Assembly: GCA_937968075.1 (NCBI GenBank) | Contig: CALBUH010000070.1 | Location: forward strand, 1 to 36,185 | DNA length: 36,185 nucleotides | Source: an uncultured Bacteroidia bacterium | GTDB taxonomy: Bacteria; Bacteroidota; Bacteroidia; J057; CALLMJ01 | Reading direction: 5' to 3' | In this document: positions 27,348 through 36,185 of the stretch, piece after piece | Layout: every line of letters starts with the position of its first letter | Position numbering within the stretch: position 1 is the first letter of the stretch | Program-made: the position numbers and the translations under genes | Notes under the pieces: model-generated | Databases searched by the model: none | Seen by the model: only the letters and a program-made list of their open reading frames with translations | What the model was told of the DNA's origin: nothing

Positions 27348-28874
27348 CTAGTATTTTGTTACAAATCTACTTTCTCTCGCTTTGGTAATCCCCGTATCAA
27401 TATACTCTATAATCTTGTGATTGAGCTTCTCATATATATCTTCCTCAATTTTTAATATTTTTCTAAACTCACGAAAAAGTAAATTAATCTCATCTATATT
27501 GTCTGGGTAAATTTCCTTTTTAGCTTTTTTTAGTTTTTTGATGATTGTTGTATGGGAAAAAGAATCCAATCCATGCGCAGCGATAGATTTATTCCGTAAA
27601 ATTTTCAAATCTTTTACGTAATTTTTAAAATTCATTTTTTGTTTGAACTCAGGGGAATTCTCTAATTCTTTATCATGTTCAATAAAATAATTCAGCAAAT
27701 TTTCTGTAAGATAAGTAGTAGGATTATCCTCTAAATACCTTATTTCTTTTTTTTCTAAATAAAGTTTTAAATCTTCTTTATCAATTCTTTGATTTTCCTT
27801 GTCATTTAAATATTTTTCAAATTCTTGCTTCCAATCGTTTTGTTCAGGATAATTTATTCCAGTAATGTTGATAACTTCTTGTAATTGTAACATTTCTATA
27901 AATCGGAAGATTCTCAAAAGGAAATCATCATAATCACCTTGTTGAAACTTTATGAAACAACTGTAATACAATTGTCTCATCGTAAATTTTTCTTTGTCCA
28001 AATCTTTAACATCATTAATGAGTAGTTCAATAAAGCTATCCTCGGATTTTGGGAAATGTTTTTGGTTATTTTCTAATGTTTGAATGGCTTTTTCAGGTTG
28101 AAAAATCAATCGGTTGTGGGCGTATTCTGCGAGCGTTCGGATTTTAATATCAATCGAGTGGAGTTCCAGTATAGCGGCATAGTTATATTTTTCAACAAAC
28201 CTACGAGCAAATTTATATTCTAAAACCGTATAAAAACGTGTTTTTATATCTATTTTAAAACTTTGTTTTCTTTTTTCATCTACCATTACCTCCACCAAAG
28301 ACTTATCTTGGGAATATAGATGTAGTACTACAAAACGAACGGCGTTATTGATAGCGTCTATACCACCAACTAAATGTAAGTATAAATTTTCACTTTCAAA
28401 AATTTTTTCTTTAAAAGGAGAAGTGGATAGTTTTTCTAACATGAAATCATACATATCATGCAGACTTATTACGTTTTCATGGACAGGTAAATGATAGACC
28501 TTAACATTTGGATACTTTTTTATGAGAAATTTTTCTAATACCATTCCAAAATAAACGGTATCTTGATTGTGTTTTTCGTATTGGTCTGTTGCTACCAAAA
28601 CCACATTATCCAATGTAATTCCTTCCTGCTCAACCATTTTAAGAGTAGGTGTAACAATTGGGAAGTCAATGTAATCTAGAAAAAAACTAAAATAACGATA
28701 AAGAAATTCTCCCAATACTCTTGCAGGAATATTATAAATAGATTTATTACTATTAGTTTCCTTTTTTAGTTGAGTATATTCCTCTAGGATTTGCGGAGGA
28801 ATATTGGTATGAGTAAAATCTTCTGTTTTTAATTGTATGTCTCGGGTTCCAAGTGTTATAATTAATGTATTCAT
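27348..28874 (-). CDS. csm6: Csm6/Csx1-like ancillary effector candidate, with an N-terminal CARF-like domain and a C-terminal HEPN-like R-X6-H motif.
   Basis: The N-terminus MNTLIITLGTRDIQL fits the CARF strand-1 plus Gly/polar-loop pattern of the kind seen in Csm6, and LHLVGGIDAINN is a possible CARF GG loop. The C-terminus LRNKSIAAHG gives R427-X6-H434 (nt ~27573-27596), consistent with the HEPN Rx4-6H motif. The gene is last in the csm operon. Confidence 0.5.
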   Translation of the reverse strand: MNTLIITLGTRDIQLKTEDFTHTNIPPQILEEYTQLKKETNSNKSIYNIPARVLGEFLYRYFSFFLDYIDFPIVTPTLKMVEQEGITLDNVVLVATDQYEKHNQDTVYFGMVLEKFLIKKYPNVKVYHLPVHENVISLHDMYDFMLEKLSTSPFKEKIFESENLYLHLVGGIDAINNAVRFVVLHLYSQDKSLVEVMVDEKRKQSFKIDIKTRFYTVLEYKFARRFVEKYNYAAILELHSIDIKIRTLAEYAHNRLIFQPEKAIQTLENNQKHFPKSEDSFIELLINDVKDLDKEKFTMRQLYYSCFIKFQQGDYDDFLLRIFRFIEMLQLQEVINITGINYPEQNDWKQEFEKYLNDKENQRIDKEDLKLYLEKKEIRYLEDNPTTYLTENLLNYFIEHDKELENSPEFKQKMNFKNYVKDLKILRNKSIAAHGLDSFSHTTIIKKLKKAKKEIYPDNIDEINLLFREFRKILKIEEDIYEKLNHKIIEYIDTGITKARESRFVTKY

Positions 28875-28886
28875 GATAAAAATTAG

Positions 28887-30008
28887 TTAAAATAATGTAA
28901 ATTTAACAAAACCAAGTGGTGTTCCATCTGATAAGTATCTACGAGTTTTGGGATAAATATCTTTGTAATGGGCTCTTGGGTCAATTTTTTTTATTTTATC
29001 GGATTTATTTTCAATGAAAGAAAAATCTAACCAACCACCGGTCATACCGATATAGCCTAAACCAAAACCTACACGAATATAAAATTCATTGGGTTTCTTA
29101 TTATTCATTTTATGAATTAAATCATTAAGTTTATCTAAATATTTTTCAATGGTACTATCACGGTTTTTATCTAATTGTTCATAATCTTTTTTACATATTT
29201 TGATGGTTTGGTCGTGCATGATTTGTAAAAAGGTTTCAGTATTTTCTATTTTGGAGAATACATTAACATTATCTGGATAATTTCCTTTTAATAATAATTC
29301 GTTATTTTTTAGATATTTATAGGCTGTTATTTCATTGGGAGTTTGTAAATCTACTAAATAGGATTGTTTAGGCGTGATACATTCAATAGGTTGCATAACG
29401 TTAGGTCTTCCTTTGATTTGGTATTTCCATTCACTACCATGTTTATTTGCAATTTGGACGGAATAAATTTGGGTATTTTCAAAATGGGCGTCGTAAATTC
29501 TTAAAAACTTCATGAGATTGTTTTGAGTTTTATTAAAGAGATAATCTAAAAGCGGAGCATCCTTAGGTTTATCGGATTCAAAGCATTCATCAAGTTTTTT
29601 TAGAACATGGGTATCTTTTCCAGCGATAGATTTACGAACAATAAGCGTTCTTAAAGCGCCTTTCAAGCTAGAGCCAGGGATATAAGGTTTTCCCATACCG
29701 TTACGAATATTAGATTTAATTTCTTTTTGATAGAGTTTACCGACAACAGGAATTTCACGTGATGCTATCTCTTTAGGGGATATACTTCCTGAGATACCTT
29801 TGATAAGATTTACGATATTAGTGGAGTCTTCTATGGCGTCTACCCATCGGTCTATGTTATTTTCTCCAATGTAATGATATACTTTTTGGGGGTCTATGAT
29901 ATAAATTTTTTGGGCTTTCTCGTCATAGAGATAGTCTAGATTTTCATATAATTTTTGCCCTGAACCGATATGGACGGGCGTAATGGTTTCAATTTGAATT
30001 TTCGTCAT
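28887..30008 (-). CDS. csm5: Csm5 (Cas7-family RAMP), type III-A.
   Basis: It begins MTKIQIETITPVHIGSGQKL, and the G-rich loop is GKPYIPGSSLKGALRTLIV. It is a 373-aa protein placed after csm4. Confidence 0.8.
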   Translation of the reverse strand: MTKIQIETITPVHIGSGQKLYENLDYLYDEKAQKIYIIDPQKVYHYIGENNIDRWVDAIEDSTNIVNLIKGISGSISPKEIASREIPVVGKLYQKEIKSNIRNGMGKPYIPGSSLKGALRTLIVRKSIAGKDTHVLKKLDECFESDKPKDAPLLDYLFNKTQNNLMKFLRIYDAHFENTQIYSVQIANKHGSEWKYQIKGRPNVMQPIECITPKQSYLVDLQTPNEITAYKYLKNNELLLKGNYPDNVNVFSKIENTETFLQIMHDQTIKICKKDYEQLDKNRDSTIEKYLDKLNDLIHKMNNKKPNEFYIRVGFGLGYIGMTGGWLDFSFIENKSDKIKKIDPRAHYKDIYPKTRRYLSDGTPLGFVKFTLF

Positions 30009-35381: not shown

Positions 35382-35418
35382 GTGTATATACTATCTATTA
35401 AGCGGTGTTTTCTGCAAC
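35382..35418 (+). repeat. Degenerate (fossil) CRISPR repeat copy isolated in the cas6-array intergenic region.
   Basis: GTGTATATACtATCTA-TTAAgcGGtGTTttCtgCAAC shares about 78% identity with the array repeat. This includes the first 10 nt and the terminal CAAC. Confidence 0.45.
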
Positions 35419-35723
35419 TTATTATCTGTTTCATGAAAAGTGTATACACTATTGAAATTATAAACAAGAAATTGTTTATGACTTCGTTACCACAATAAGC
35501 GTAGCAACCCCAAACCTTTTAATAAGTTAAGTTGCTACGCTTTATTCTTTTATAGGAGATTATTTCCAATTTGTTCTTTGATAGTTAAACTAATTTTTAT
35601 ACTTTTGCTAAATATTAGAATTCAAAAATTGAGCTTTTACATAAAAAAACAATGTAAAAAAGTGTTAAAAATAAAAAAAAAAGGAGAAATAACCATTTGA
35701 TATTGAGATAGTTATGAATTATC

Positions 35724-36185
35724 GGTGTATATACCATCTAATTAATAGGAGTTCACAACATATTAAGTCCGATAACTATTCACTTGATAGGTGTATATAC
35801 CATCTAATTAATAGGAGTTCACAACCATGGGTATATGATTATTGATGATGAAGCCGGTGTATATACCATCTAATTAATAGGAGTTCACAACCTTTGCATA
35901 AACTATTGTTCCATAATTTTTGGTGTATATACCATCTAATTAATAGGAGTTCACAACCTGATTAATTTGTGTAAATACGAATATATAGGTGTATATACCA
36001 TCTAATTAATAGGAGTTCACAACTCTATAATATCCTTATATTTCTCTACAATCGGTGTATATACCATCTAATTAATAGGAGTTCACAACTTGGAAATCCA
36101 GAACAGCATTAAGCAGCTCTGGTGTATATACCATCTAATTAATAGGAGTTCACAACTTCTTATTTGTAATTTAATTATAGATACT
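35724..36185 (+). CRISPR. CRISPR array of at least 7 identical 36-nt repeats (GGTGTATATACCATCTAATTAATAGGAGTTCACAAC) with 30-31-nt spacers. It continues beyond the window edge.
   Basis: The repeats are at 35724-35759, 35790-35825, 35856-35891, 35922-35957, 35988-36023, 36054-36089 and 36121-36156. The spacers are 30, 30, 30, 30, 30 and 31 nt. The trailing 29 nt look like a partial spacer. Orientation is uncertain, as discussed in the findings. Confidence 0.95.

Follow-up and report, generated by a model that had tools for sequence, protein, structure and literature searches.

The window analysed here, the whole 36,185-nt stretch of contig CALBUH010000070.1 from an uncultured Bacteroidia bacterium, ends in a cas operon and an adjoining CRISPR array. 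This locus is very probably a functional type III-A (Csm) CRISPR-Cas system that resides on the chromosome and works through the steps proposed below. Judged from its sequence, it is an ordinary and intact system of a known kind with a known sort of reduction, namely a Cas10 that lacks the HD nuclease and no adaptation module. The evidence consists of gene identities, catalytic motifs, the anatomy and orientation cues of the array, two flanks that both lack cas1/cas2, and purifying selection on the genes. The module is predicted not to be the full three-activity III-A machine: transcription-coupled cleavage of single-stranded DNA (ssDNA) would be absent, and defence would proceed via the RNA and cyclic oligoadenylate (cOA) arms.

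Subunits, catalytic motifs and the Cas10 HD domain

Seven co-directional open reading frames (ORFs) were tightly packed on the minus strand at 27348-35183 (Table 1), with csm4 sharing 20 nt with csm3 at one end and 20 nt with csm5 at the other. We searched the ORFs against NCBIfam equivalog models with curated cut-offs, Pfam, and PADLOC. All five Csm subunits (Cas10/Csm1 and Csm2-5) passed the NCBIfam equivalog cut-offs over essentially their full length, and Pfam and PADLOC concurred. The coordinates and profile scores confirmed the seven minus-strand genes of the original prediction (cas6, cas10, csm2-5, and a csm6-like gene), which had been made from the letters of the window; the profile check that it proposed assigned every Csm ORF to its family above the NCBIfam cut-off, and Cas6b and Csm6 were assigned via Pfam and PADLOC. 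Type III-B and III-D assignments were rejected, as models for Cmr2, Cmr4, Cmr6, and Csx7 all scored under cut-off (Cmr2 on Cas10 had 38.3 bits vs 79.4) and the III-D Cas7 models in PADLOC produced weak matches only.

The motifs for RNA cleavage and cOA synthesis, which had also been called intact before, were both located. Csm3 contained GGVDSP at residues 31-36, and its predicted catalytic Asp34 within GGVDSPVIRNP aligned with the Asp of GGIDNPVIKDP in the T. onnurineus Csm3 (6iqw_C). Cas10 contained the Palm1 motif GGDLSGIQ (residue 224), DVDNLG (501), and the GGDD motif (557-560), with a Pfam palm2 score of 120.6 bits. The best PDB match for Cas6 was the Cas6b structure 4z7k (2.9e-12).

The module had been described as a complete III-A interference module, and the subunits, cas6, csm6, and the array were all present, but the loss of the Cas10 HD nuclease had gone unnoticed. 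An N-terminal HD nuclease is typical of III-A Cas10 proteins, though not strictly defining. A motif scan of the window Cas10 found zero HD dipeptides in the whole protein, a single His in residues 1-160, and no CxxC. The Pfam scan of Cas10 returned no HD domain match, and solved Csm1 chains in the PDB aligned to the protein only from ~residue 133. HD-bearing Bacteroidota relatives carry LLHDIGKF...HKHV...HH...ADH..GVDR, whereas the window Cas10 and one close relative have a ~66-residue segment (HDIGKF, HKHV) deleted and every remaining ligand position substituted (alignment A1). The motif HD[ILVMF]GK was found in 101 of the 120 best Cas10 homologues and was missing from the other 19, ~15 of which were full-length proteins with motifs that had degenerated differently. 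HD loss thus appears to have happened repeatedly and independently in the Bacteroidota III-A clade that is compared with the window below.

The 508-aa protein encoded by the last gene of the operon had no NCBIfam match, but it exceeded the threshold for the Pfam Csm6 HEPN domain (29 bits vs 27) and aligned end to end with the PADLOC Csx1/Csm6 models (Csx1 4.5e-42, CARF+HEPN 1.2e-32). Among 55 family members, R427, N428, and H434 of the HEPN R-x6-H motif were invariant, as were several N-terminal CARF positions. An AlphaFold2 model built on these 55 members had a mean predicted local distance difference test (pLDDT) score of 94. The best folds in the PDB were two structures bound to cyclic hexa-adenylate (cA6), namely Csm6' of S. 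thermophilus and Csm6 of E. italicus, followed by T. thermophilus Csm6 (E 2e-8, template modelling (TM) scores of 0.5-0.6). Searches of the PDB with the Csm6-like sequence and with a profile returned no match, and the link to solved Csm6 proteins is via fold comparison alone. The Csm6-like family had 1,566 representatives at 50% clustering and, given that no solved structure was detectable by sequence, is a possible modest target for structural work.

Table 1 Features of the type III-A locus, with positions in the window
Feature	Coordinates	Strand	Description
terminator-like hairpin	27286..27326	-	directly 3' of the csm6 stop; stem GTCGTTGG/CCAACGAC, then U run; from sequence and RNAfold
csm6-type effector	27348..28874	-	508 aa; N-terminal CARF and C-terminal HEPN, R427-N-x5-H434
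csm5	28887..30008	-	373 aa; TIGR01899 91.3 bits (cut-off 38.3), full length; PADLOC Csm5
csm4 / Cas5	29989..31044	-	351 aa; TIGR01903 185.6 bits (cut-off 55); Pfam Csm4_C
csm3 / Cas7 backbone RNase	31025..31762	-	245 aa; TIGR02582 205.7 bits (cut-off 90)
csm2 / Cas11 small subunit	31778..32200	-	140 aa; TIGR01870 66.7 bits (cut-off 30.6); Pfam Csm2_III-A 86.4 bits
cas10/csm1	32216..34486	-	756 aa; TIGR02578 482 bits (cut-off 170), residues 27-753; Pfam Csm1_B and palm2
cas6, Cas6b type, predicted pre-crRNA endonuclease	34488..35183	-	231 aa; Pfam Cas6b_N 54.3 and Cas6b_C 98.2 bits
divergent intergenic region and leader	35184..35723	.	540 nt, GC 0.23
perfect 12-bp inverted repeat	35497..35542	.	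AAGCGTAGCAAC / GTTGCTACGCTT; flanked by the relic repeat and by the leader proper
CRISPR array	35724..36185	predicted sense +	7 identical 36-nt repeats; runs off the window

CRISPR array and intergenic region

The array beside the cas genes, previously reported to have at least 7 repeats, contained seven 36-nt repeats, all with the sequence GGTGTATATACCATCTAATTAATAGGAGTTCACAAC and with starts at 35724, 35790, 35856, 35922, 35988, 36054, and 36121. Six complete and unique spacers of 30-31 nt separated them, and a seventh was truncated by the window end. The loci fetched for comparison yielded neither self-targets nor spacers in common.

Four cues led us to predict the + strand as the array sense strand, divergent from the cas operon, with the repeat read as GGTGT...CACAAC. 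In a 99.89%-identical contig that reaches past the window end (L001), the array ends distal to cas6 in the degenerate repeat GGTGTATCCACCATCTGATCAGTAGGTGTCCACAAC with 7 mismatches. A Thermoflavifilum relative (L014) has a 34-repeat array with the repeat GGTGTGCACACTGTCCATTTGAATAAGGATTACAAC, co-directional with and downstream of its cas genes, in which the sole variant is the last repeat. A Bacteroidota-type -7 motif (TAnnTTTG; consensus match only) is found at 35600-35607 (+), 117 nt before repeat 1. Finally, the 3' end of the repeat, UUCACAAC, presumably corresponds to the usual 8-nt 5' tag of a CRISPR RNA (crRNA), which it resembles. Further -7 motifs, again consensus matches only, were located at 35213-35220 (-), 23 nt upstream of the cas6 ATG, and at 35278-35285 (+), and the terminator-like hairpin 3' of csm6 has its support at the consensus level only. 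A scan for sigma-70 promoters recovered about as many sites as shuffled sequence (5 vs 4.9 expected), and the same promoter/terminator scan recorded a terminator-like site at 35335-35348 (minus).

We rejected a structured repeat, as its 4-bp 5' hairpin was no more stable than shuffled sequence. A repeat without a stable fold fits the non-stem-loop substrate of a Cas6b-type enzyme. A comparison of the leader and array with Rfam matched no CRISPR-DR or other family, just sub-threshold miRNA and plastid noise. The divergent intergenic region and leader were near-identical in L001 and two other loci (L002 and L003), and the perfect inverted repeat within the region was conserved in all three with one single-nucleotide polymorphism in its loop.

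Relatives, selection and alternative explanations

The module has a sister locus (L005/L006) on contig CALLMJ010000030.1 from a metagenome-assembled genome (MAG) labelled 'uncultured Bacteroidia bacterium'. All seven genes recur there next to a separate array, and its Cas10 is 78% identical to that of the window. The two loci have zero spacers in common, and 6 of the 36 repeat positions differ between them, so the arrays have turned over since the lineages split. Pairwise ratios of nonsynonymous to synonymous substitution rates (dN/dS) between the window and L005 were 0.076-0.243 across all seven genes, and we therefore conclude that the whole module is under purifying selection. The N-terminal 150 codons of the HD-less cas10 had a dN/dS of 0.13, so this selection includes the remnant domain. 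The dS values were themselves uneven along the module (window 27348-35183 vs L005 986-8807), with 0.45-0.68 for csm2-csm5, 1.2-1.5 for cas6 and cas10, 1.09 for hpf, and saturation for xerC, a hint that the two lineages recombined or exchanged part of the module.

In III-A loci cas1/cas2 are common, and an adjoining adaptation module is usual but not defining. The original prediction had noted no cas1/cas2 in the 8 kb to the left or before the window end, an observation that we extended to every ORF of 110 aa or longer in 1-26300, where no Cas1/Cas2 families were found; ORFs below 110 aa were inspected for Cas1/Cas2 only in the 14200-16000 gap, and none was seen there by eye. It had also suggested that spacer acquisition may depend on genes beyond the array or on another CRISPR locus. 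That cas1/cas2 or a reverse transcriptase-cas1 fusion sits just outside the window, past the array, making this a standard complete III-A locus, draws on the common occurrence of these genes in III-A loci and on a window that ends inside the array, but it is now highly improbable: L001 passes through the degenerate terminal repeat into ~5.9 kb of housekeeping genes (4HBT thioesterase, PMT_2 glycosyltransferase, DUF2231, aminotransferase, and DUF3352) with no Cas family among them. The L001 array itself has two repeats and one spacer and was probably collapsed by assembly, so its length is uninformative. Two distant relatives, an Emticicia-like locus (L013) and the Thermoflavifilum MAG (L014), also had no cas1/cas2 within 10 kb, and because they share the layout, the lack of adaptation genes is, as far as sequence comparison can tell, a clade trait and a stable architecture. 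The same layout occurs in these distant relatives with a fully HD-positive Cas10, which argues against reading the locus as a decaying relic that is no longer functional, its missing adaptation genes and HD loss being erosion and its array a fossil. The absence of cas1/cas2 on either side, the lost Cas10 HD domain, a decayed repeat in the intergenic region, and the lack of spacer matches could all be taken as signs of such decay. We nevertheless consider it decidedly unlikely given seven intact ORFs that are conserved in the sister lineage with dN/dS of 0.08-0.24, intact catalytic motifs in Csm3, in the cyclase of Cas10, and in the HEPN domain of Csm6, seven identical repeats, and spacer sets that are wholly different between lineages.

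Horizontal acquisition had been suggested from an AT-rich composition relative to the flanks and a position beside xerD, and neither argument survived. GC content was 0.327 in the cas genes vs 0.342 +/- 0.034 in 24 flanking genes (Mann-Whitney p = 0.50), and GC at third codon positions (GC3) was 0.275 vs 0.277 (p = 0.84), by which we rejected a compositional anomaly. The 'xerD' recombinase has thousands of Bacteroidota homologues, and hpf comes directly after it in each of the three relative contexts that we examined (five loci), none with Csm genes beside it. Because this xerC-hpf pair is conserved in relatives without neighbouring Csm genes, the protein is, from its sequence context, best read as a resident housekeeping XerC/D-type recombinase and not as an island integrase. 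These results, together with the lack of att-like direct repeats or other mobile-element genes flanking the locus and a distance of 13 kb to the tRNA genes, make it very unlikely that the adjacent XerD-like recombinase inserted the locus as a recently acquired genomic island, even though csm6 is 173 nt away from a tyrosine recombinase gene, the module has a different neighbourhood in the sister lineage, a distant relative has its module on an integrase/relaxase element, and dS in csm2-csm5 is lower than in hpf or the saturated xerC. In an empty-site test, relatives kept xerC-hpf while the upstream gene varied (GAF/DUF4178 or DUF2147), and the test recovered no clean 4HBT-xerC junction. Over longer timescales, mobility of the module is plausible on grounds other than those first proposed, since the sister module lies beside different genes than in the window, L013 has its module on an element with integrase, primase, and relaxase genes, and dS in csm2-csm5 is below that in hpf and xerC. 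The cas6b-Csm module of L013 (264-20068; Emticicia-like, Cas10 35% identical) is found directly after integrase, primase-like, and relaxase genes, with extra AAA_14/DUF4143 and WYL-domain genes around the csm6-like gene, and gives the impression of a Csm system carried by a mobile element. The decayed repeat of the intergenic region invites an explanation of its own. This relic, degenerate CRISPR repeat at 35382..35418 (+), ~340 nt upstream of the array, had a local alignment score of 36 (shuffle mean 22.5, max 34, 300 shuffles), and the 20-mer after it matches cas10 33579-33598 at 17 of 20 positions, such that a + strand RNA would pair with the cas10 mRNA. The relic and its next 20 nt (35382-35438) might then act as a crRNA-like regulator that pairs imperfectly with the cas10 mRNA and tunes or guards the operon like CreR/CreA RNAs. 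Such a role would accord with a relic that is significantly repeat-like and with the correct pairing orientation, but the match was merely the top of ~104 leader 20-mers in AT-rich sequence, the hypothesis was formed after the match had been seen, ten of the matching bases are the palindrome TTTCATGAAA, the putative downstream repeat scored at chance level, and the entire element is absent from the sister locus. The match to cas10 is probably due to chance and the regulator very improbable; to our knowledge, no CreR/CreA-like circuit has been described for type III systems. Equally little credence goes to the wider proposal of a lineage, composed of the window and one sister MAG, that runs III-A without DNA cleavage or adaptation genes of its own and adds a crRNA-like leader relic to autoregulate or guard the operon.

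Our preferred reading of a functional, resident III-A system also has results that weigh against it. Recruitment of the array to 50,697 INPHARED phage records with blastn gave chance-level matches only (E >= 2), and scans of IMG/VR with exact cores (24-25 nt) from spacers 1, 2, and 6 found no match. Because no spacer matched a phage or viral contig, activity against real targets is unproven, although a lack of spacer targets is unsurprising for a rarely sampled organism. Searches for the repeat, as an exact 36-mer and then as the degenerate pattern GGTGTNNNNACCATCTAANTAANAGGAGTTCACAAC, recovered only the sister contig CALLMJ010000030.1 from GTDB representatives and nothing from JGI metagenomes, and they pointed to no source of adaptation in either dataset. 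As for the ring size of the cOA, the cA6-bound structural neighbours of the Csm6-type model give a hint at the species, at TM-scores of merely ~0.5-0.6.

The remainder of the window had the following content. ORFs for type IX secretion cargo, with CHU_C or Por_Secre_tail C-terminal domains, occur at 1-1758, 2425-5394, and 19576-21402 (all +), and the window can be placed in Bacteroidota because of them; the first of these includes tandem 246-nt Ig-like repeats. The eukaryotic major vault protein has a bacterial homologue in the 819-aa protein encoded at 9371-11830 (-), whose Pfam matches are MVP_shoulder (7.5e-28), Vault_3, and Band_7/SPFH. Two identical tandem tRNA-Lys(UUU) genes followed by tRNA-Leu(GAG) are located at 13973-14222 (+). 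A 94-aa ORF at 15188-15472 (-), in a ~950-nt gap without any ORF of at least 110 aa, was judged by eye to resemble a fragment of an insertion sequence (IS)-family transposase.

Proposed mechanism and comparison with known systems

The biochemical steps of the proposed mechanism are predicted from the protein families, and the sequence of the tag, the species of cOA, and adaptation in trans are likewise predictions. The AT-rich leader would drive rightward (+) transcription of the array, divergent from that of the cas6-cas10-csm2-csm3-csm4-csm5-csm6 operon. The Cas6b-type endonuclease would cut the essentially unstructured 36-nt repeats, leaving an expected 8-nt 5' tag of UUCACAAC, and the Csm complex of Cas10 and Csm2-5 with its crRNA would bind complementary invader transcripts. 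Csm3 would then cleave the bound RNA through Asp34, while target binding would activate the Cas10 Palm/GGDD cyclase to make cOA. Binding of cOA to the CARF domain of the Csm6-type effector would switch on its HEPN RNase (R427/H434) and result in collateral RNA degradation. Because the HD nuclease active site is lost, no Cas10 DNase step and no target-activated ssDNA cleavage are predicted. As neither side of the locus encodes adaptation proteins, new spacers would depend on adaptation proteins whose genes lie elsewhere in the genome, or would be acquired rarely.

HD-less Cas10 proteins and type III loci without cas1/cas2 are already known, and the locus has little significance beyond cataloguing in that respect. 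It does provide a well-supported example of a III-A system that apparently relies on RNA cleavage and cOA-Csm6 only, in which the HD nuclease is lost and Cas10 is still under purifying selection, and of a cas6b-led Csm module that is routinely without adaptation genes in a Bacteroidota clade. Both bear on in-trans spacer supply in type III systems and on which of the three activities are dispensable.

That clade of cas6b-led III-A loci (Emticicia, Spirosoma, Fibrisoma, Phaeodactylibacter, and Thermoflavifilum; NCBI-annotated as 'type III-A Cas10/Csm1') provides the nearest comparison beyond the sister locus. Like the window, its members have the order cas6b-cas10-csm2-5 followed by a csm6-like gene (460-500 aa in the clade), no cas1/cas2 within 10 kb, and a related repeat family (36 nt, GGTGT...ACAAC, 66-nt period). 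Their Cas10 proteins are only 33-39% identical to that of the window (35-37% for L013 and L014), and most are 830-890 aa with the canonical HDIGKF (101/120), in contrast to the 756-aa window Cas10 without it. The position of the array also differs, being downstream of csm6 in L014 and upstream of cas6 in the window.

Solved III-A complexes (6xn3, 6nud, 6ifk, 6mur, and 7uzw) come from Staphylococcus epidermidis, Streptococcus thermophilus, Lactococcus lactis, and Thermococcus onnurineus. These systems and the window are alike in subunit set and order (cas10-csm2-csm3-csm4-csm5-csm6 with cas6), have alignable Csm3 and Cas10, and have in common the GGDD cyclase, the Csm3 Asp, and a Csm6 CARF-HEPN effector. 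The window differs from them in its Cas10 without HD ligands or CxxC zinc-finger motifs, its lack of adjoining cas1/cas2, its Cas6b-type Cas6, and a Csm6 that is too divergent for a sequence-level PDB match. The Cas6b of Methanococcus maripaludis (PDB 4z7k/4z7l) has the same Cas6b N- and C-terminal domains as that of the window and a cognate repeat that likewise lacks a stable hairpin, but it serves a type I-B system, whereas the window Cas6b is encoded by the first gene of a type III-A operon. For Cas10, HD-less proteins are known in other subtypes, such as VmeCmr (PMC8682760), where immunity likewise relies on the cyclase and a cOA-activated effector. VmeCmr is a prophage-encoded Cmr (III-B) system with the DNase NucC as its effector, whereas the window encodes a chromosomal Csm (III-A) system with a Csm6-type RNase.

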